From the NCBI GenBank assembly GCA_963847705.1, contig CAWKBC010000016.1, forward strand, positions 1 through 42,139: a DNA stretch of 42,139 nt, read 5' to 3'. Positions 1 to 9,229 of this stretch are shown here, in pieces (the stretch's first letter is position 1; each line of letters opens with the position of its first letter). The position numbers and the translations under genes are program-made. This DNA comes from an uncultured Pseudomonadota bacterium. Lineage in GTDB: Bacteria > Myxococcota_A > Polyangia > Fen-1088. The notes under the pieces were generated by a model. That model made no database searches. It was not told the DNA's origin and was given only the letters and a program-made list of their open reading frames with translations.

Positions 1-96
1 CGATGGCGGTTGGCCGACCGTCCGGCGTCGGAATGAACCATCCTGTGGTACCGGTGACGTTCGACGGTTGCCTATGCGGGCCGGGACCGACTTGAC

Positions 97-1632
97 GTGT
101 CCATCTTCGACAACGACTCAACCCTGAGCGGACCCTTCGAGCCCCCAACCGGGTCACTGAGCGCGCCCGTCGTACCTGCGCTCACAATCCTGTGGCACCC
201 GGACCTCAATCGAGTCGGTGAGGTAGCTCTTCTCGAAGACGACGGTGTGTTGGGCTTCACCCGAGATGCCCCGGCGTTTTTTGTTCCTGGCTCCAACGTT
301 GGCCGGCCGATAGCTCACCGCATGATGGGCCGGGACCCCGTCGTAGGATTCGCATCAGTACAGGGCCGTCTCGAGATCCGGCCAGGTTCCACCGACATCG
401 AGGTTCGCGTCGATGGGGAACGGTTCGATCAGACGCGTCAGCTCGATCCAGCAGAGCTTGGACGCGGCATCATCGTGACCGTTGCTCGTGCGTTCGCTTT
501 CTGCCTGCACAGTATTCGCCACCCGGTCACCCGCTCCCCGAACCTTGGTCTCGTCGGGTCGAGTGACGCGATAGACGACGTTCGCCACGCAATCATGCGG
601 GCCGCAGGGAGAGCCGACACAGTCCTCATACGGGGCGAAAGCGGCACGGGTAAAGAGCTGGTCGCCCGCGCTTTGCACGAGAGCGGTCCTCGCGCGAAAG
701 GTCCTTTCGTCCCCGAGAACGCCAGCCGCTTTCAGCGGGAACGCGCAGACGACGTGCTCTTCGGCCACGAACGAGGAGCGTTCACGGGCGCTACCGACAG
801 TCAGCCTGGACTTTTCCGCGCCGCCCACGGCGGCACCCTCTTCATCGACGAGATCGGCGATCTGCCTTTGGAGGCTCAGCCGATGCTCCTGCGGGTGATT
901 GAAGACCGCATCGTCCAGCCTCTCAGCAGCACCAGGTCCCGAAAGGTGGACGTTTTCGTCGTCGCCGCTACCAACGCAGATCTCGAGGCCGCGCTCTCAG
1001 CAGGGCGCTTCAACGAGTCGCTGTTCTACCGCCTCAAGACCAGCGTCAACATCGCTCTCCCGCCGCTCCGCGCGCGTCGGGAAGACGTCGGCTTGCTGCT
1101 CGTTCATTTCCTCCGCATCTATCTCGACGCCGACCTCCAGTCCCTGCAGACCGCGGACCCTCCCTGGCTCGCCGCCCGTGATGTCGCCGCCCTGGCCATG
1201 CATTCCTGGCCCGATAACGTCCGAGGACTCGAAGGGGTGGCCAGGAACCTAGCGATCGAGGCGGGCCCCGGTGCTCGCTGCGGCACGCACGACTGGATCA
1301 AGAACTTCTTGGCCGAAGCAGAACGACAGCCCCCACCGGACGCGAGCTCGTCCCGTGAGACGAAGTCCGCCGCCAGCAACCGCGACCTGCTCCTCGCCGC
1401 CCTCGAGCGCAGCGGTTGGAGCAGCGCGCGGGCCGCCAAGCTCATCGGTCTCTCCCCACCCACTTTCTCGCGGCGCCTGGGCGAGCATCCTGAGCTCCGT
1501 ACGGTCGCCAAGCTTCGCATCGCAGATCTGATTCGCGAAGAACGTGAGGCGAACGGCGACGTGGAGATCGCGGCGAAGAGGCTCGGCGTCTCTCCCGCCC
1601 TGCTCGCGCGACGCCTCCGCCGCCCTCGATAG
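97..1632 (+). CDS. Sigma54-dependent enhancer-binding protein (NtrC/Fis family AAA+), probable FHA-like N-terminus, two C-terminal HTH-like motifs
   Basis: Walker A GESGTGKE, GAFTGA loop, Walker B FIDEIG, LPPLRARREDV, WPDNVRGL. HTH-like ARAAKLIGLSPPTFSRRL and EIAAKRLGVSPALLARRL. Confidence 0.93.
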   Translation: MSIFDNDSTLSGPFEPPTGSLSAPVVPALTILWHPDLNRVGEVALLEDDGVLGFTRDAPAFFVPGSNVGRPIAHRMMGRDPVVGFASVQGRLEIRPGSTDIEVRVDGERFDQTRQLDPAELGRGIIVTVARAFAFCLHSIRHPVTRSPNLGLVGSSDAIDDVRHAIMRAAGRADTVLIRGESGTGKELVARALHESGPRAKGPFVPENASRFQRERADDVLFGHERGAFTGATDSQPGLFRAAHGGTLFIDEIGDLPLEAQPMLLRVIEDRIVQPLSSTRSRKVDVFVVAATNADLEAALSAGRFNESLFYRLKTSVNIALPPLRARREDVGLLLVHFLRIYLDADLQSLQTADPPWLAARDVAALAMHSWPDNVRGLEGVARNLAIEAGPGARCGTHDWIKNFLAEAERQPPPDASSSRETKSAASNRDLLLAALERSGWSSARAAKLIGLSPPTFSRRLGEHPELRTVAKLRIADLIREEREANGDVEIAAKRLGVSPALLARRLRRPR

Positions 1633-1646
1633 TCCAGCCGGTCGCG

Positions 1647-1688
1647 TTTCATTTCATTTCACGGCGTTTCAGTGAAACGGAAATGAAA
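1647..1688. promoter_or_regulatory. Palindromic TTTCA/TGAAA array, candidate upstream activator site
   Basis: TTTCATTTC-acgg-CGTTTCA-g-TGAAACG-GAAATGAAA inverted repeat, AT-rich in a high-GC context, about 55-95 bp upstream of a -24/-12 motif. Confidence 0.55.
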
Positions 1689-1740
1689 GGGTCGAGCGCC
1701 CTAAGTGCGCGTTTTTCCTAATCCGGTACCGCTGATTTCG

Positions 1741-1757
1741 TCGGCACCGAGCTTGCG
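1741..1757 (+). promoter_or_regulatory. Sigma54 (-24/-12) promoter
   Basis: TCGGCACCGAGCTTGCG has exact GG-N10-GC spacing and is close to the TGGCAC-N5-TTGC consensus; 50 bp upstream of ATG 1807. Confidence 0.7.
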
Positions 1758-1806
1758 ATTGGCCTCCTCCGTTCTGGGCGTTTCGCCCGCGGAAGAGAGG
1801 CCAGGG

Positions 1807-2451
1807 ATGCACGACGCAGCTCGCGACCAACTGATCAGAAGCCACCTTCCTCTCGTCCACCGGGTCTCGGAGCGTCTTCGCGCATCGTGGCGCGCGAACG
1901 GGCTGGAGATTGACGACCTCGTCGGCAGTGGCACCGTTGGCCTGGTTCAAGCGGCCGACCGGTTCGATCCGACAAAGGGCGTCAGCTTCAAGACGTACGC
2001 AGAGATCGTAATTGAGGGCGCCATCCGCGATGGCGTTGGCCGGGGCAGCTACTGGTTTGGCCGCCGCGCTGCCGGGAGCGTAGTGGTGGTCCATCTCGAG
2101 GATCTGGCGCCCGACGGCTGCGAGGGTTGGCTCGGACAAGCTCACGACGGCGAGGGAAACGTCCCCGCGCTCTGGAACGGGCATCCCTTTTTCCAACCGC
2201 CCAACGACGACGAACTCGATATTCGGTCGCTTCTTGCCGACGAGATACTCCACCTGCCCGATCGCGAACGTCGCGTGGTCCAACTCTGCTTCTACGAGGG
2301 TAAGAAGCTCACGCACGCTGCACAGGAGATGAAGATCCTATTGCCGCTGGCGTCGCGGCTCCGCAAACGGGCTCTGTGCCGCCTTCATCACGCGATCGGC
2401 AAGGGCCGAAAAGGCCGGCCCGAATCGACGGCCGGAGGGCTGGCCCCTTGA
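1807..2451 (+). CDS. Sigma70-family RNA polymerase sigma factor (FliA/WhiG-like region 2, divergent region 4)
   Basis: DDLVGSGTVGLVQAADRFDPTKGVSFKTYA (region 2) and LPDRERRVVQLCFYEG (region 4.1). Start ATG 1807 follows a purine-rich RBS. Confidence 0.88.
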   Translation: MHDAARDQLIRSHLPLVHRVSERLRASWRANGLEIDDLVGSGTVGLVQAADRFDPTKGVSFKTYAEIVIEGAIRDGVGRGSYWFGRRAAGSVVVVHLEDLAPDGCEGWLGQAHDGEGNVPALWNGHPFFQPPNDDELDIRSLLADEILHLPDRERRVVQLCFYEGKKLTHAAQEMKILLPLASRLRKRALCRLHHAIGKGRKGRPESTAGGLAP

Positions 2452-2512
2452 TCTCTGGCACTGATATACGGCCCCGTGGGCGCTGCGCTCGGGGCGGCGG
2501 ATCGGAGTGTGC

Positions 2513-3061
2513 GTGAGCACAGACTCCGATTTCGCGTCCGGCCACTTCGGCACGCGATATCTTACGACCGAGGAGGCGGCCGCCTATCTCCGGTTCCGGT
2601 CACCATCCGGTGTCTGGAACTTGGCGCGTCGAGGCGGTGTGCGCCCCCTGCAGCGAGGTCGTACCGCACTCTGGACAGTCGAGATGCTAGACCGGATGTT
2701 GCGGTCACCGGCCGTAGTGCCGGCCGTTTCCGAGGAGGGAGCTGATGCAAAAAACGAAATACCCCGGCGTGTGGCGACTCCCATCGGGCGGATACCACGT
2801 CCGAACCTCAGCGATCGATCCGCGGACCGGCCGGCTCCTGCCCCGCAAGCGGAACCTGCCGACGGCGACACTGGCGGAGGCGCTCCAAGAGGTCGCCCGG
2901 CTTCGCCAGATCGCCAAGGCCGGCGGCACGGTGCGCGATCCCAAGCAGCCGACCCTTACGGCCTTCGCGCGATCTTGGCTCGAAACACATCTTCCGCGCA
3001 TGACGTCGGATCTGGCCAAGGCGCGGTACGCGGAGGCGCTCGACCTCCACGTGCTGCCTGA
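2513..3061 (+). CDS. Helix-turn-helix (excisionase/HTH_17-like) protein; C-terminal part overlaps the integrase
   Basis: YLTTEEAAAYLRFRSPSGVWNLARRG winged-HTH pattern immediately upstream of the integrase; GGAG precedes GTG 2513. Confidence 0.75.
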   Translation: MSTDSDFASGHFGTRYLTTEEAAAYLRFRSPSGVWNLARRGGVRPLQRGRTALWTVEMLDRMLRSPAVVPAVSEEGADAKNEIPRRVATPIGRIPRPNLSDRSADRPAPAPQAEPADGDTGGGAPRGRPASPDRQGRRHGARSQAADPYGLRAILARNTSSAHDVGSGQGAVRGGARPPRAA

Positions 3062-4112
3062 GCTCGGCGCGTTCTTCATCGATCAGATCTTCGATCGCGA
3101 CCTCGAAGTGTGGCTGACGAAGCCACGGAAAGATCGCCGGGGGCGCGCCTACTCGCCGCATACGGTGAACGGCTGGTGGCGGGTCTTGAAGATGGTCCTC
3201 CAGGCCGCTGCGCGGCAGCACCGTCTTCCGGACCCTACAGCCGGCGTGAAGCCCCTGCCCCTCCCGCAACGTGAGCACGAGAACTCTCTGACCCCCGAAG
3301 AGCTGCGCGCGTTCCTCGACGTCGCCAAGCGGCTCTACCCGCAGTGGTACACGTTCATCGTCCTCGGCTTCACACTCGGGATGCGTCCCGGCGAGCTCCG
3401 CCCGCTCAGGTGGGACGAGGACGTCGACCTCGACGCCGGAACGCTGACCATTCGGCGATCGCAGCGTCGGACCTACGTCGGGCCCACGAAGACGAAACGT
3501 ATCCGGGTGATCTCCCTCCCGACGACGCTCGTCGAGCTTCTTCGTGCTCACCGGGAGGCGATAAAGGGATCAAAAGGATTCCGTCAGCTCGCGTTCCCGG
3601 CGGCCGGCGCGCCGGGCGTCGCAGTTGGCTCCAAGAAGCTGCAGCACTTCGCCAAGCTGATCGGTCTGCCGCCCCGGAAGGCGCGGGCGCTTCGCTGGGA
3701 CGCAGACATCGATCTATCGGCCGGCGTCGTCACCACGGCGTCCGACGGCAACTTGAGACTGTCGGCCCAAGTCTTAACGATTCTCCAGGAACTCCGCGAC
3801 GGCATGAGTGGCTACGCCGCTTCCGGCGACCTGCTCTTCCCAGCCGAGACGGGCGGCTTCGTCACGGCATCGTGCCTCGACAAACCGTTCCGCCAGATTG
3901 TGGCGACCGCGAAGATCAAGAAGCTCATCACACCTCGGGCGATGCGCCGGACGGCGCAGGATCTCTCACGGCTCGCCGGCGTCAACGACCTTGTCACCCG
4001 CGCCGTCAGCGGCCACAGCGACATCGCCATGCAGGAGCTTTACAGCACCATCCGCGGCGAGGAGATGCGGAAGTCGCTTGCGGCGGTCGTCCAGTTGGCC
4101 GGACTTACCTAA
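2745..4112 (+). CDS. Tyrosine recombinase / integrase
   Basis: GMRPGEL (catalytic R), PTKTK, TPRAMRRT (HxxR position reads RxxR), SGHS and LY (catalytic Tyr). SAM-like domain YSPHTVNGWWRVLK; strong RBS GAGGAGGGAG. Confidence 0.95.
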   Translation: MQKTKYPGVWRLPSGGYHVRTSAIDPRTGRLLPRKRNLPTATLAEALQEVARLRQIAKAGGTVRDPKQPTLTAFARSWLETHLPRMTSDLAKARYAEALDLHVLPELGAFFIDQIFDRDLEVWLTKPRKDRRGRAYSPHTVNGWWRVLKMVLQAAARQHRLPDPTAGVKPLPLPQREHENSLTPEELRAFLDVAKRLYPQWYTFIVLGFTLGMRPGELRPLRWDEDVDLDAGTLTIRRSQRRTYVGPTKTKRIRVISLPTTLVELLRAHREAIKGSKGFRQLAFPAAGAPGVAVGSKKLQHFAKLIGLPPRKARALRWDADIDLSAGVVTTASDGNLRLSAQVLTILQELRDGMSGYAASGDLLFPAETGGFVTASCLDKPFRQIVATAKIKKLITPRAMRRTAQDLSRLAGVNDLVTRAVSGHSDIAMQELYSTIRGEEMRKSLAAVVQLAGLT

Positions 4113-4393
4113 CCAACCGGGCCCGCGATCCATGCCTCGGGCGAACCGTCTGAGCATGCCCTGAAGCGTAGGGCGCGTCATCGAGGACGTCTACGACGGC
4201 CGCTCGATCCACCGCTCATGTTCTTCGACGCCGAGTCGAGTCATGCTCGACAGCTCGCGCCGGAGCGCCTTGAAGTCGCCAGGTCGTTTCAACGCCACGA
4301 TTCTAATCCAGGGGCGACCAGCGCAGCTGCGACCAACACACCGGCCTGGCGGAGCGGAAGACAGCCGCGGCCCGCGCCGGCTACACTGGTCTG

Positions 4394-5800
4394 ATGCGAT
4401 CGGAGGATCTGCACTTCGGTTTCTTCCCGGCGCTGCCATTGAGGGACAATCTCGAGCTTGGGGAGTGGGTGGTCGGTTCGCCGGCGCCGGAGGTTGAGTG
4501 GGCGTCATCCGAATTTCGACAGCTCGCCGAGACGCTCTACGACTCCTTTGCGCCGCGGTTCACCCGGGGAGCAAAACTCTGGCACCGTACGCGCGGGTTC
4601 GACGGATCGTGGCCAACAGCCGAAGCGTACCGAGCCATTCAAGCAGCGGTGGCGTTCGCGGTCTTCGACGTGAACGACCACGTCCCAGTGGCCGATCGCC
4701 AAACGCAGCTCGCAACGACGGACAACGCGGACCTCTTTCTGCAGCCTATCCACGATCGGATTACTCACGTTCGTCCGGGTGGCCTCCGGGGCGAATGGAT
4801 CGGCGGGTGGCCGATCGGAGAGGGGGCGCCCCCTCTTGCCGACGCCGTGTTCCCTCTCCAGCTCGCCGTACCGGCGTCAAAGACGTTGGCGAAGGCGGTC
4901 TACGACTTCTTGTGCGGAGGCTCCGCTAACCTTGCGCGAGTTGCCACCGCAATGGAGTGGCATCGGGTCGCGATGGCGAATCCCGCCGCCGTCACGCTAC
5001 AGCAGCGGATCGTCGCTCTCAAGACGGGATTCGAAGCGCTGCTGAATGAGAGCTCTTCGGTTGCCGCGGCTGGGTTGCTGCGGCGCCTGTTCGAGGACGC
5101 CACACGAGATCATCAAAAGCTTCTGCCGTGGGAGGGTGTGCTCTGGTCTCCAACGGAACGGACGATCTCCTACTGGTGGTGGGAGAGGGAAAAGAACGAG
5201 AAGATCAGAGTCCTCAAGCGATGCAGCGAGCTTGAACACTGGTTCTTGGCGTTTGCGAACGCTCGAAACGAGGTCATCCACGACGGCGTGTTGTCCTCCG
5301 ACGTGTACGTGGCGCCCGCCGAACGTCCCAAGTCACGTTACGCGGGCTCTCTTTTCTGGACTGGCGAGAGAGTCCTCCGCGAAGCCATCAAGACGGAGTT
5401 GGGATCGAAGGTGCTTCTTTGCGGGATCATTGCGGCCGACGAAAGGATTCGGGCGGCCGTCGGTCCGTCGCTTGACGTCGACAATCCGGTCAACCTGACG
5501 GCGACCGTCGGTCCATCCGCGACCACTCCCGTGACTCCGCTTCTGACGATGCTGCGGTCGCTTGGATGTCGAGCAGCGAACGAGATCACCATCTGCGACC
5601 TCTTCGAAGAAGGAGCTAGGCCGGGCGCGGTGGCGCGCGCCACAACCGGCCGTCACATCGATCCTTGGGACTCCGGATCGGAAGAATGGGGCGTCGACCC
5701 GGAGGAGAAGTGGATCGAAATCACCGGAGCGGAGCGTGAGCTTCTCAAGCAGGCGGGCGCAGAGGACGAGCTGCCGAATCTTTGGTACCCCTGCGAGTAG
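4394..5800 (+). CDS. Hypothetical protein with HEPN-like RxxxxH motif (ApeA/HEPN-like)
   Basis: The helix LVALKTGFEALL equivalent (IVALKTGFEALL) is followed by ARNEVIHDG at 5261-5287; 468 aa ORF inside the island. Confidence 0.65.
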   Translation: MRSEDLHFGFFPALPLRDNLELGEWVVGSPAPEVEWASSEFRQLAETLYDSFAPRFTRGAKLWHRTRGFDGSWPTAEAYRAIQAAVAFAVFDVNDHVPVADRQTQLATTDNADLFLQPIHDRITHVRPGGLRGEWIGGWPIGEGAPPLADAVFPLQLAVPASKTLAKAVYDFLCGGSANLARVATAMEWHRVAMANPAAVTLQQRIVALKTGFEALLNESSSVAAAGLLRRLFEDATRDHQKLLPWEGVLWSPTERTISYWWWEREKNEKIRVLKRCSELEHWFLAFANARNEVIHDGVLSSDVYVAPAERPKSRYAGSLFWTGERVLREAIKTELGSKVLLCGIIAADERIRAAVGPSLDVDNPVNLTATVGPSATTPVTPLLTMLRSLGCRAANEITICDLFEEGARPGAVARATTGRHIDPWDSGSEEWGVDPEEKWIEITGAERELLKQAGAEDELPNLWYPCE

Positions 5801-5857
5801 GCCCATGGCCCGCAGATGGTGCGTGGTCTTACACGCGAGCCGGATCTCCTGTTTGGC

Positions 5858-6514
5858 TCACCAGTCATTCGGTGGCGACAACATGCCCGGACTCTCGACG
5901 AGCAGGGGAATATTCTGATGGCACTCGGGACACTGCCCAGGCGTGGGGACAAGGCCAGTCGTATGCCGCATCCAACCGAAATAGAGCTGCTGCACGGCGA
6001 CCTGCGTGAGGGAAATTACCCGCTTAAGGCCTTCCATGAATACTGCCGTCACTGTGCAGATGTACCGGAAATCGACGTAGGAATCGGCGAATACTGATCC
6101 GAGCAGATTCGGAACGGCGGGCAAGTAATGGTTCGCGAAGGCCTTGCCGTCGATGACATCCGCCCGATTCTCGTCGGCACTCCGCTCCTGATCGCCTTGG
6201 ATCTCTGAAAGGGGTCGGACTATTGCCAGTTGCCGAATCTTGCCGTTCTCGACTTCACAACCGCGGCTGAGGAGAACTCCTAGCGTGAAGCGGCCGGGGA
6301 CCAGAAAGGTTGCGTCTTGCTTGCCTTCCGAAATCTTGGTGGGTAGCGGTGCCAGTGCTCCGAGGATCTCCACGGACTCGCGGTCATTCTTTTTCTGAGT
6401 ATTACCGGCAGCCCGCAGAGGCGGTTTGAGACCGCGAAAGGACGGAGACAGCGAGAATATGTCACCGGGCCGAATCTTCTCGTCCGGAACTCGGTACCAC
6501 TCTTCAGACGTCAT
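5858..6514 (-). CDS. Hypothetical protein, PemK/MazF-like pattern (putative toxin), C-terminal CxxC
   Basis: IRPGDIF...GVLLSRGCE...LAIVRPL...SYVDFRYICTV...RVISLT follows the order of PemK-family motifs. The start overlaps the upstream gene's stop region. Confidence 0.55.
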   Translation of the reverse strand: MTSEEWYRVPDEKIRPGDIFSLSPSFRGLKPPLRAAGNTQKKNDRESVEILGALAPLPTKISEGKQDATFLVPGRFTLGVLLSRGCEVENGKIRQLAIVRPLSEIQGDQERSADENRADVIDGKAFANHYLPAVPNLLGSVFADSYVDFRYICTVTAVFMEGLKRVISLTQVAVQQLYFGWMRHTTGLVPTPGQCPECHQNIPLLVESPGMLSPPNDW

Positions 6515-6953
6515 CGTCTTCGCCAGCTGGTGGCGCTGGACGACCTTCGATGTCGGTGGAGGACGCGAGAAGATGCCCTATGAATTTCGACTCCATCAGA
6601 GCCCGGGTTCGCCATCGTGCTTTAGCTTCTTCCACGGGATTTGAGAGAACCGGTCGCTTCACAGCGAGTTTGGCGTGCCACGCAGCAGGAGACACGTGAA
6701 CCAGCCGAGTCTGTCGCAATCGACCGTAAACCGAAACCAGCATACCGGCGGCCTGTTGTGAAATGGAAAACAGGTCGCTGATAGACCGGCCAATATGAAT
6801 AATCCCCGATGCCGCGTTAACGACGGACCACTTTTCCGTAGTGGTCTGAGTCGTTACGGGATCGACCGGGTCAAAATGAGCGACCGAACTCGACGTCGTG
6901 AGTCGCCACCGAGGACGCGCATTGTTGGTCGGACTATCTTTCTGTAGCTGCAT
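6504..6953 (-). CDS. Small hypothetical protein (putative antitoxin) between the TIGR04255-like and PemK-like genes
   Basis: ATG 6953 with a GAGGT RBS lying inside the upstream gene; overlaps both neighbours; ends in an acidic tail GEDDDV. Confidence 0.6.
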   Translation of the reverse strand: MQLQKDSPTNNARPRWRLTTSSSVAHFDPVDPVTTQTTTEKWSVVNAASGIIHIGRSISDLFSISQQAAGMLVSVYGRLRQTRLVHVSPAAWHAKLAVKRPVLSNPVEEAKARWRTRALMESKFIGHLLASSTDIEGRPAPPAGEDDDV

Positions 6954-7734
6954 CGATGACCTCAAATGTATTTCGCGCGTTGTCAGTTACAGAACCCTCA
7001 AACGGTTTGATGATTCCTTCGTCGTGGGCAGTTCGAAGCCAGGCCGCGAGAGTCTCAAATGTCGGCCGCCGATCGGGCTTCGATGTAACTCGAAGATCCA
7101 ACCATACTCCGAGGATCTTTTCGACCGCCGGTCCCGCCTTCACTGAATACCGGAGGTCAGCGCCGACGGAATCGAGGTCCATCCCGATGTCAGCAGCATA
7201 TTCCTGAATGGAGCTAAAGGATGGCGGAAGCGATAGACCGATGGTCAGCCAATCCTCAGCGATTCCGTCTTCACCGATAGGCACCTCGATCCTATTAATG
7301 TACCGCATCGAGGTCTGCTTCAGACCTCGAGCTGACCCGAGTTGTTGGTAGTGCTCAACAGCCGCCAGCACGTGCGGGACAAACCACTCAAAGCCCGGAT
7401 AAGGTTGTCCGTCCCCCGCTTCGGGGAGAGGTGGATTCCTGACAAAATGAATCGAAAGGACGCCCGGGCCCACCTGGACGGCCAGGCCGGGCCTGGCGGA
7501 AAGCCAGAGCCTTTCCGTAGGAAGCGGAGGTGTCGAGGGGACCGCGCCTGTGCTCGGGCCAAACTGAATGAGAACATGCTGGGTCTGAAACTGGTCCCGA
7601 CGGATGCAGCGTTCTTTCCATCCTTCGTAGAACCGTCCTGCCACCGATGGGTCCGGAGTGTCCTCGTCGTATAGAACCTCCACGATCGCCTCGAGGATGG
7701 GCGGCTTCCGGTACCGCTTCTTGGGGTCTGGCAC
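6934..7734 (-). CDS. TIGR04255-family protein
   Basis: Family-typical motifs YRKPPILEAIVEV, YPGFEWF, MRYINRI, WLDL and FEGSVT. Confidence 0.82.
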   Translation of the reverse strand: MPDPKKRYRKPPILEAIVEVLYDEDTPDPSVAGRFYEGWKERCIRRDQFQTQHVLIQFGPSTGAVPSTPPLPTERLWLSARPGLAVQVGPGVLSIHFVRNPPLPEAGDGQPYPGFEWFVPHVLAAVEHYQQLGSARGLKQTSMRYINRIEVPIGEDGIAEDWLTIGLSLPPSFSSIQEYAADIGMDLDSVGADLRYSVKAGPAVEKILGVWLDLRVTSKPDRRPTFETLAAWLRTAHDEGIIKPFEGSVTDNARNTFEVIDAATER

Positions 7735-8006
7735 CTTGTTGATTTAACCCCTCACGGACGTAGGTACTTCCCAAAAGTCAACGCCGCGATCTTGTCCGTG
7801 CATCGCGAACGGGACGCCACCCGAGGGCCTAACCCGGTGCGGAATTGGGTCCGATCGAATCTCCACTCGGATCGGCAGAAGTCGCGCATGAGCTTGAGGA
7901 CAACGTCACGGTAGTGCTCGCGGATCAGCGCGTCAAGAAAAACCGGGAGCTAGATGAAGACGTAGAAGTCCCCGCGCCATCTGGCTAGCGAAGCTGATCG
8001 GGTCGC

Positions 8007-8996
8007 CTAGCCATATGAATCATCGACCGCCCGCTTGAGCCGATCGAACGCGAACCGGAAGGCGAGATCGCGGGTCTCGCGTGGGGTTTCGACGCTAGCG
8101 GTGAGCCAACCGTCCCATGGAAAGACATGGCCGACAGGACCGGCTCGTGAGCTGCTTGCACCACTCTGCGGATGCTCCAAGAGGAGGTTGGCCCGGGGAT
8201 CAGCGACCCGCTGAGGACGCGCTAGGACCACCCAGTAGTAGAACAAACCGAAAAGGACGACGACGGCACCGAACAAGTCTTGTTGGGTCGTGGTAATCAC
8301 CGCGTGGGGGCCCGGCCCGAATCTAAACAGACCTTGCTCTTCGTGCGCTCCAGGCGATGCGATCACCCCGCACACCGGGACGGATTCGCTGCCTCCCAGA
8401 ATGAATCGCCGAACGCTCTCGAACTGCGCACCACGCATCGCCTCACCAGAACGAAGCATCGCAGCCCGCTCGAAGGCAATTTTCGCGGCAAGGCGACGAA
8501 GAACCAGCTTGTCGAGCTCGTCGTCGAGAACAACGAACGGACCCGCCACCGGATCGGGGGAACGTTCCTCCCAGCGGATCTGTTGCCCCTTGCCGATCCG
8601 ATTCTGCGCTCTCGTCACTGCCGCATCGGGACCCATGACCCTATAAACTCGCTTCCCGTCCGCTCCCACGTCTGTCTTGATGATCGCCGATCGGAGTTCA
8701 CCGTCCTCGCCGATCGCGACCGACTCGACTCGACCGTCCGCGAACTGCACCTGTCCCGGAACAGGCGGAACTCTCCCTTTCTCGGCGATGCCCCAGACAC
8801 TCCGGCAGAAGGCGAAGAATGGGAGTGCCGGGTTTTCCACTTCGGAGTTGGTGGCATGGTTGCAGCGGGCACATACCGTGCGGCGGGACTGTGCGATTCC
8901 TCCGAGCGCCTGCGGAATCACATGAGCAGCCGGCGCCGCCCCGAATACCTCGCCATCGTAGGCGCACGTGAACGTCGCTGGTCTGACTGTGGACAT
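8007..8996 (-). CDS. HNH endonuclease (HNH_5-like N-terminus) with uncharacterised C-terminal region
   Basis: CAYD...HVIPQALGG...VCARCNH, and later RLAAKIAFE. Confidence 0.8.
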   Translation of the reverse strand: MSTVRPATFTCAYDGEVFGAAPAAHVIPQALGGIAQSRRTVCARCNHATNSEVENPALPFFAFCRSVWGIAEKGRVPPVPGQVQFADGRVESVAIGEDGELRSAIIKTDVGADGKRVYRVMGPDAAVTRAQNRIGKGQQIRWEERSPDPVAGPFVVLDDELDKLVLRRLAAKIAFERAAMLRSGEAMRGAQFESVRRFILGGSESVPVCGVIASPGAHEEQGLFRFGPGPHAVITTTQQDLFGAVVVLFGLFYYWVVLARPQRVADPRANLLLEHPQSGASSSRAGPVGHVFPWDGWLTASVETPRETRDLAFRFAFDRLKRAVDDSYG

Positions 8997-9084
8997 CCGT
9001 CGCTCTGACAGTCAGTAGTACGCGGATACTGAGGAGTCGGAATAACCGAGGGTGGCGCCCCGGACAACCATCGATCGTACAGAA

Positions 9085-9150
9085 AACTCGTCCCGGAACT
9101 CGTCCCTGAGCGGTTTTACCGAAGGGGGGGTCTCGTCTAAGTCGTTGAAA
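9085..9150. promoter_or_regulatory. att-site accessory motifs: two direct repeats (arm-type-like) and an IHF-like site
   Basis: AACTCGTCCC at 9085-9094 and 9097-9106. The minus-strand TTTCAACGACTTA (9138-9150) matches WATCAANNNNTTR with one mismatch. Confidence 0.55.
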
Positions 9151-9157
9151 TTTTGGG

Positions 9158-9229
9158 TGGGCGTTGTAGGGATTGAACCTACGGCTTCCACCGTGTGAAG
9201 GTGGCACTCTTCCGCTGAGTTAAACGCCC
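9158..9229 (-). tRNA. tRNA-Val (anticodon CAC)
   Basis: GGGCGTT/AACGCCC acceptor stem, ACTC/GAGT D-stem, CCACC-TTCACAC-GGTGG anticodon arm, GTAGG-TTCAATC-CCTAC T-arm. Discriminator A is followed by CCCA. Confidence 0.96.

Follow-up and report, generated by a model that had tools for sequence, protein, structure and literature searches.

A predicted sigma54-dependent control module ahead of the excision genes of an integrative mobilizable element in an uncultured Polyangia bacterium

What decides when an integrative element leaves the chromosome of its host? Excision is usually gated by repressors of the CI/ImmR type, by activators of the SetCD type or, as in Tn916, by a sigma factor of the element itself. 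We met this question in the 42,139 nt at the start of contig C16 (CAWKBC010000016.1), here called the window, from the genome (6.1 Mb, 84.7% complete) of an uncultured Pseudomonadota bacterium that GTDB places in Fen-1088 (Myxococcota_A; Polyangia). Positions 1-9200 of the window make up the right-hand portion of an integrative mobilizable element that sits at a tRNA-Val gene; in it, a gene for a sigma54 enhancer-binding protein (EBP) is followed by a -24/-12 promoter and by genes for a sigma70-family factor, an excisionase-like protein (xis) and a tyrosine integrase (int). We lean slightly towards a control module in which the EBP, a binding-site array and the sigma54 promoter would switch on one sigma-xis-int operon, and hence excision, in a single step, a reading that builds on gene order, conservation, promoter and array statistics and the mobilization (mob) context and whose regulatory steps are predictions.

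How would such a module be wired? The EBP gene (97..1632, plus strand; 511 aa; Sigma54_activat, 1e-53; HTH_8) encodes an AAA+ domain with Walker A (634-657), a GAFTGA loop (775-792), Walker B (838-858) and sensor II (1207-1224), and its C-terminus holds two helix-turn-helix (HTH) matches (aa 429-463 and 484-509) of Fis type. The GAFTGA loop is unbroken in 7/7 element EBPs. Behind the gene lies a predicted upstream activating sequence (UAS; 1647..1688) of six TTTCA/TGAAA half-sites with a palindromic centre at 1667-1678 and an inverted repeat whose arms lie at 1647/1652-1660 and 1680-1688. It spans -96 to -59 from the GG of a sigma54 element (1743..1756, plus strand; GG 1743-1744, GC 1755-1756, GG-N10-GC), within the 50-150 bp looked for upstream of -24/-12. 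The promoter is conserved in homologues, and rpoN is present in the host genome. From the GGN10GC rule, as given in an excerpt of PMC8657755, transcription is predicted to start near 1768. The GAFTGA-intact EBP and the well-formed -24/-12 promoter of an earlier note on this DNA were thus both found again, and its palindromic site downstream of the EBP is really the array of six half-sites.

The arrangement of array and promoter is far from chance. Arrays of at least four half-sites within 60 bp occur twice in the 6.1-Mb genome, each before a -24/-12 element and sigma-integrase genes, the second being on an island at tRNA-Leu on contig C40. The word GGCAC-N5-TTGC occurs 36 times in the genome (both strands), an expectation of 0.0006 for each 200 bp of a single strand. 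A -24/-12 motif was found at 28/33 accessory-sigma loci, all EBP-adjacent ones included, compared with 0/2 host-sigma loci. The half-site varies with the type of EBP (TTTCA, GTCTC, GTTCG, TGTAG, GTCCG), and the position of the array is constant, its centre being, in most cases, some 70-76 bp upstream of the GG. It is therefore likely, as far as these patterns go, that the EBP activates the sigma54 promoter from the array just behind its own gene. A candidate IHF site between UAS and promoter (1702-1714) found no support, its 3 mismatches being no better than in shuffles; over 18 leaders the mean was 3.06 mismatches versus 3.29 in shuffles.

What would this promoter transcribe? Downstream follow, all on the plus strand, the sigma gene (1807..2451; 214 aa; Sigma70_r2 and r4, with FliA/WhiG-like regions 2 and 4), the excisionase-like HTH_17 gene (2513..2743, with its start at 2513 or 2507) and the integrase gene (2745..4112; 455 aa; catalytic R214, RAMR, H424 and Y433 motifs), which has a Shine-Dalgarno (SD) sequence of its own. 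The 61-nt gap between sigma and xis is bridged by a frame of 22 codons (2448..2516, plus strand) that overlaps both the sigma stop and the xis start. This mini-ORF has equal length and no stop in 10/10 rows of the window type, and frames of 27 and 51 codons bridge the sigma stop and the downstream start in two other types; since a TGA always overlaps some NTG, the far end of the overlap is the informative one. The mini-ORF is a possible translational coupler, judged from its overlaps. Scanning of window 1-4500 returned no sigma70-type promoter and no plus-strand terminator, by a method blind to promoters of alternative sigma factors. As no separate promoter was found before xis, the sigma54 promoter likely drives sigma, xis and int as a single operon. 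The earlier note's description of the three genes as co-oriented and closely spaced holds. The xis frame runs past the int start and is open as far as 3061, beneath the integrase. We rejected the idea that this 317-nt run into int is an unusual overlap or a frameshift, since 128/245 genes in the genome show as much. Pairwise dN/dS (nonsynonymous to synonymous rate ratio) is 0.03-0.45 across the EBP domains, sigma regions 2 and 4, xis and int (region 2, 0.03-0.19; region 4, 0.05-0.45; xis, 0.21-0.44; int, 0.09-0.18), and by this measure all genes of the cassette are under purifying selection.

The leader of this operon folds in a way that depends on where transcription begins. A hairpin at 1759..1804 (plus strand), with arms that covary among leaders, straddles the predicted start, and its 5' arm (-9 to +3) pairs with the purine-rich ribosome-binding region of the sigma gene. 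Its stability is -29 kcal/mol (z -3.7; 0/200 shuffles as stable), whereas from 1768 onward nothing stable forms (z 0.7). Comparable stems with differing sequences were found in 16/20 leaders versus 10/34 other -24/-12 sites. The duplex between a leader's own arms averages -12.6 kcal/mol versus -8.7 for swapped pairs (0/100000 permutations as strong), and in RNA that begins at the predicted start the ribosome-binding site (RBS) opens with a saving of at least 3 kcal/mol in 15/18 leaders versus 3/11 matched control promoters (p 0.018); the leaders are related, so these p-values overstate the evidence. In the window the sigma RBS needs 12.4 kcal/mol to open, the xis RBS 16.4 and the int RBS 5.0; the median among 26 control genes is 6.0, and the int RBS opens at 3-5 kcal/mol in 5/5. 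Two host -24/-12 promoters (G000:C8 57394 and C27 89377) also have an RBS hairpin that straddles the start site, the former directly behind a co-oriented EBP gene, and such a device may be more general.

Put together, the EBP of the element would bind the half-site array behind its own gene and, once bound, would fire the sigma54 promoter to give one transcript for sigma, xis and int. A mobCDE transcript probably ends with the EBP gene, and read-through from mobCDE-EBP would carry the full hairpin, so that sigma would be poorly translated and Xis probably too, via the overlapping frames. Int would still be made from its own open SD, and integration would be favoured. If transcription instead began near 1768, the RNA would be missing the 5' arm of the hairpin, and sigma and Xis would be released along with Int, favouring excision. 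Sigma would then be a co-product, and its possible targets are its own promoter in an autoactivation loop as in Tn916, other genes of the element, or host genes. Sigma54 promoters stay off until their activator acts, which suits a step that must never leak.

Is this gene order kept elsewhere? EBP, sigma, xis and int follow one another in the window, in a same-genus genome (G017) and in L070, L072, L073 and L067 (the latter up to the first 18 int codons); the rows of L066, L069 and L071 end inside the cassette, and G021:C8 retains a remnant of the EBP together with promoter and sigma, followed by an integrase of another kind. Three integrase types, at tRNA-Val, -Gly and -Leu, are found attached to the head of the cassette. 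In the 89 genomes of the family, 33 matches to the EBP N-domain were found in 24 genomes, 20 with a sigma gene downstream, 11 without and 2 at contig ends. Outside the family the N-domain occurs in 52/400 genomes of the phylum, and no sigma or integrase gene stood near the EBP at any of the 20 loci examined (of 77 matches). The synteny expected by the earlier note is therefore conserved in relatives, within one Polyangia family only. In a quick tree the window EBP groups with kinase-linked EBPs (100% SH-aLRT), and the window sigma falls in a long-branched clade (100/100) among element-borne sigmas; on these trees the cassette is a mosaic of an EBP with kin behind Ser/Thr kinases and a sigma from an element-borne clade. 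Among viral contigs none of 39 pattern matches was confirmed as the EBP N-domain, a plasmid search for it returned generic AAA+ matches only, and a pattern scan across 301 genomes was too unspecific to be of use.

Some neighbouring arrangements deserve record in their own right. The C40 island (G000:C40 33571-34510, L003) at tRNA-Leu has a TTTCA/TGAAA array, a -24/-12 element, a leader hairpin, sigma and integrase genes and no adjacent EBP, with an EBP paralogue (45%) at a distance of 22 kb; cross-activation between the window and C40 islands is possible. At L060, L061, L145, L163, L164 and L166 a recurring module has the order Ser/Thr kinase-(lipoprotein, PEGA/TPR-like gene)-FHA-EBP-sigma54 promoter-sigma-conserved small ORF, the last overlapping the sigma stop; it is likely a complete Ser/Thr-to-sigma signalling cassette. 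L053, L054, L151 and L152 show the order topoisomerase-EBP-(FHA-GGDEF)-sigma-Cys-rich lipoprotein genes-RadC in island-like DNA, one of them at tRNA-Asp.

Several findings count against the single-step module, among them the R-hand of the EBP discussed below. At the leader, the xis RBS is occluded in 5/7 homologues without dependence on the mini-ORF; RNAalifold on 18 leaders gave no consensus hairpin, 3 promoter pairs only and no covariation, a null result that we ascribe to the shifting of stems by the sequence alignment; and 4 newly fetched leaders gave 2 clear folds, 1 partial and 1 negative. At the promoter, G016:C334 is without the EBP and without most of the array. In gene order, sigma-int occurs with no adjacent EBP at C29, C40, G019, G020, G021:C13, G027 and G080, xis-int occurs with no sigma at C44 and C14, and xis-int directly follows only 3/20 EBP-sigma pairs (one joined through metagenome contigs L073/L074).

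These gene orders suit another explanation, in which the EBP-promoter-sigma cassette is a self-contained passenger that controls cargo or host genes by way of its sigma, landed between mobE and xis and left xis-int under mob read-through or a promoter of their own. In 17/20 EBP-sigma pairs the genes that follow are lipoprotein or small genes (3 of the 20 contigs end within about 1 kb of sigma), Ser/Thr kinase genes precede 6 of the pairs and a topoisomerase gene precedes 4, and the same genome holds a mob-xis-int element free of the cassette and its sigma (C44). Yet no plus-strand terminator was found between sigma and xis, the sigma stop and the downstream start are overlapped or bridged in most elements, and the junction of sigma with xis/int stays constant across three integrase types while the cargo changes. 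We consider a passenger cassette unlikely.

Could the EBP itself be too weak to act? Its R-hand reads N306-x-S308-xxx-R312 (1003-1035) in place of RxDxxxR, so two of three residues are gone from a motif that excerpts of PMC3419264 propose for all bacterial EBPs, and in the same excerpts PspF R162A and D164A bring the ATPase down to about 0.2 per min. The first Arg is absent in 17/17 sigma-linked EBPs and is Arg/Lys in 22/26 others; further departures are DDVLFG for ESELFG and WPDNVRGL for WPGNVREL. A weak or dead ATPase would make the EBP a repressor or a roadblock on the array, or leave it in need of a host EBP partner, with the promoter fired from elsewhere, and array and promoter are indeed kept without an adjacent EBP in C40, G020:C13 and L059. 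The protein nevertheless keeps GAFTGA, Walker A/B, the switch Asn, the second Arg and sensor II; the last Arg is kept in 44/44 EBPs, and use of the second Arg has been proposed for NtrC1 (PMC3419264, excerpted). Moreover, pairwise dN/dS of the AAA+ domain against relatives is 0.08-0.30 (a value of 0.52 belongs to a non-orthologous host EBP), and the -24/-12 sites are conserved although all 17 sigma-linked EBPs are without the first Arg. To us this makes an inactive EBP slightly less probable still than a passenger cassette.

What signal would the EBP of the single-step module receive? The FHA-AAA+-HTH layout is known from myxobacterial FHA-containing EBPs, and the window protein shares this layout, its nearest relatives adjoining Ser/Thr kinases; it differs in having no phospho-pocket Ser, no kinase on the element, a tandem HTH and an altered R-hand. 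Every top Foldseek row for the model of its N-domain (pLDDT 88.5) is an FHA domain, with E 1e-4 and a target TM reaching 0.78, and in a profile alignment its SR motif corresponds to SRQH of a solved FHA. Thus the FHA-like N-terminus of the earlier note stands as a fold; Pfam gave no FHA match in the window EBP, and the phosphothreonine (pThr) pocket is incomplete. By the general roles of FHA pocket residues, Arg56 is kept and is invariant, the Ser is Gly78 and the Asn is absent. The Ser is Gly, Ala or Asn in 8/8 element-borne domains and Ser in 42/42 others. No kinase gene lies on the complete G017 element, and 70 kinase matches were found in the host genome. The element FHA domain is, to judge from its pocket residues, probably no longer a phosphothreonine sensor. 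Loss of the Ser in all eight element EBPs, together with the lack of a kinase on the element, makes phospho-gating unlikely and sets aside the Ser/Thr phosphorylation gate that had been suggested; phospho-gating fits the ancestral kinase-linked loci, not the element.

And what would the sigma factor do? Its fold model shows regions 2 and 4 on either side of a disordered linker and no folded region 3. It scores 76.8 bits against TIGR02479, where the cut-off is 189.6, so that with no region 3 and with VIEG it falls outside FliA/WhiG (group 3) and passes the superfamily model TIGR02937 alone. Compared with the closest host relative of the element sigmas, a FliA/WhiG-like paralogue (G000:C32 99091-99789, L178), its recognition residues are altered (VIEG for RIRG, LPLASRL for RSWASRL). 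From the missed cut-off and these changed residues, it probably reads a promoter of its own. The L178 sigma has a match in 86/89 family genomes, nearly always single-copy, and it too is without a Pfam region 3 match. An ESM Atlas search returned generic sigma70 clusters. No shared promoter motif that could be the sigma target was found at the mob regions or in the cargo. A sigma-specific promoter at mobC was rejected, since the upstream regions are alike across differing sigma types or no sigma, and a bipartite-motif search in the cargo gave GC-rich generic words only. Least likely of all is the strict cascade, in which a host kinase signal would pass through the FHA domain to the EBP and sigma54, and from there by the sigma70 factor to a second promoter for xis/int: the FHA fold with its Arg56, the host kinases, a sigma factor that is kept by purifying selection and whose recognition residues are its own, and the workable halves seen in HrpRS-HrpL and Tn916 speak for it, but the FHA Ser is lost on the element, no kinase accompanies it, the gap before xis is short and filled by an open frame, neither a sigma70-type promoter nor a shared motif was found in the regions named above, and sigma-less mob-xis-int elements exist, so the claim that sigma70 switches on xis/int finds no support.

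The element that carries the proposed single-step module is supported as a mobile one by an att site at a tRNA gene, an integrase and the mob context of a relative, as the earlier note had supposed. The window opens inside the element with the 3' end and stop of mobE (1..36, plus strand), recognised from 89.5% identity to the G017 element, in which the EBP gene follows mobE; the rest of mobE lies beyond the contig end. That complete relative (G017:C2) spans 19.1 kb between 54-bp repeats at tRNA-Gly, and the identity extends over window 1-4122. Its order is relaxase (reverse) / mobC-mobD-mobE-EBP-array-sigma54 promoter-sigma-xis-int-cargo-tRNA. Its relaxase matches PF03432, its mobD homologue is 55% identical to a plasmid mobD, and the labels mobC and mobE are based on gene position and DUF6753. 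Relaxase, oriT and mobCDE are thus seen in the G017 element, and the window copy has just the last 36 nt of mobE. At the other end stand the integration site, tRNA-Val(CAC) (9156..9229, minus strand), an IHF-like site beside it (9138-9150) and an integrase arm-type direct repeat, ACTCGTCCC-N3-ACTCGTCCC (9085..9108, plus strand). The repeat has a single exact copy in the host genome and is present at both ends of the G017 element, which ties the window integrase to the tRNA-Val end. Of the parts expected in an integrative mobilizable element, the window holds a tyrosine integrase, an xis-like gene, arm sites and an att at the 3' end of a tRNA gene.

The att core (9157-9200, 44 bp) has a second copy at C14:323680-323723. 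We rejected this copy as the left end of the element, as the arm there is without the arm repeat of the element; the left end is therefore missing from the assembly, and tRNA-Val is the site of a tandem array. In that array (G000:C14 312689-328846, L001) att recurs at 312689 and 323680; it also has a further xis-int pair, part of a tRNA-Asp-like end close to 324838 and a cluster of aldehyde dehydrogenase, MaoC and MDMPI genes with 59.8% GC. A relaxase on C10 was rejected as the element's own, because it continues into C44. No attP joint was found among the contigs of 4 DNA runs, in which relatives are present and which, as contigs, cannot show absence. Variable cargo (4394..8996; 60.7% GC, compared with 62.7% for the window up to 9150 and 69.1% beyond tRNA-Val) comprises a 468-aa unknown, two unknowns, a TIGR04255 protein and a weak HNH protein. 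The C40 island also carries a paralogue (46%) of the 468-aa unknown at 4394. The TIGR04255-family gene and then the 153-aa and 218-aa unknowns (6934-7734 and 6504-6965, minus strand, low GC) are possible toxin-antitoxin or defence cargo. In a soil relative (run X1, against window 2331-9019) the cargo is a nearly exact match, the sigma 3' end, xis and int start are a 91-94% variant and the EBP has no coverage, a pattern that is another sign of module swapping. The integrase holds, at aa about 210-370 (window 3370-3860), a degenerate second box-I/beta copy (aa about 305-367) with the catalytic Arg replaced; this insertion of about 75 aa is kept in homologues 79-95% identical.

How does the predicted module compare with known systems? 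Its element shares with mobilizable elements of the MobABCDE type (IncQ-2/IncP-6, MOBP) a tRNA-targeted tyrosine integrase, a PF03432 relaxase, mobD, an oriT-like ATCCTG site and the lack of a mating pore, but has the EBP-sigma54-sigma cassette between mobE and xis. In IS10/Tn10, protection from external promoters reportedly works by structure on upstream-started transcripts that hides the translation start of the mobility gene, as Davis, Simons and Kleckner are said to have described in 1985 in a paper cited by PMC13181058. The window leader would likewise hide a translation start on upstream-started transcripts, but its hairpin is predicted and would guard a sigma factor behind a sigma54 promoter. 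RteB of CTnDOT is NtrC-like. There, RteA/RteB act through RteC on xis2c-xis2d-exc, so that an element-encoded activator chain likewise ends in excision genes; the input is two-component, the second activator is not a sigma, and the excerpt of PMC5812530 gives no sigma54 promoter. In Pseudomonas syringae, HrpR/HrpS act through sigma54 on HrpL (PMC8657755, in excerpt; see also PMC3105312 and PMC5263251), again an EBP and a sigma54 promoter driving an alternative sigma70-family gene, but HrpRS are sensor-less, paired and control type III secretion, whereas the window has a single FHA-AAA+-HTH protein before xis-int on a mobile element. Tn916 has a sig7-sig8-xis-int operon headed by sigma genes and autoactivated (excerpts of bioRxiv 10.64898/2026.10.01.756105 and PMC5812530). 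In both it and the window an element sigma70-type factor with regions 2 and 4, co-oriented directly before xis-int, heads the operon, control is positive without a CI-type repressor, and upstream read-through matters. As far as those excerpts go, the Tn916 sigma is split, autoactivating and primed by tet(M) read-through, whereas the window sigma is one chain behind a -24/-12 element, UAS and element EBP, with read-through apparently blocked and no mating-pore operon. By analogy, a Tn916-like autoactivation loop is possible in the window element.

Precedent thus exists for every part (HrpRS-HrpL, Tn916, CTnDOT, IS10) and none was found for the combination, which is likely an undescribed on/off switch for excision; our literature search, whose coverage extends to few subscription papers, found no paper describing sigma54/EBP control of xis-int. 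Its reach is one family of uncultured Polyangia, as a prediction from sequence. There the cassette offers a natural series of EBP-UAS pairs with changed specificity and a predicted leader that blocks read-through, and its EBPs without the PspF R-finger bear on the question of R162 and R168. A wider account is tentative and in our view rather doubtful: islands may have captured a kinase-linked FHA-EBP/sigma54/sigma cassette and shed its phospho-input, gaining a two-output switch and private EBP-UAS channels, with the window EBP also triggering the C40 island. If that is true, one island would control the excision of another, the window EBP acting on the EBP-less island at tRNA-Leu.

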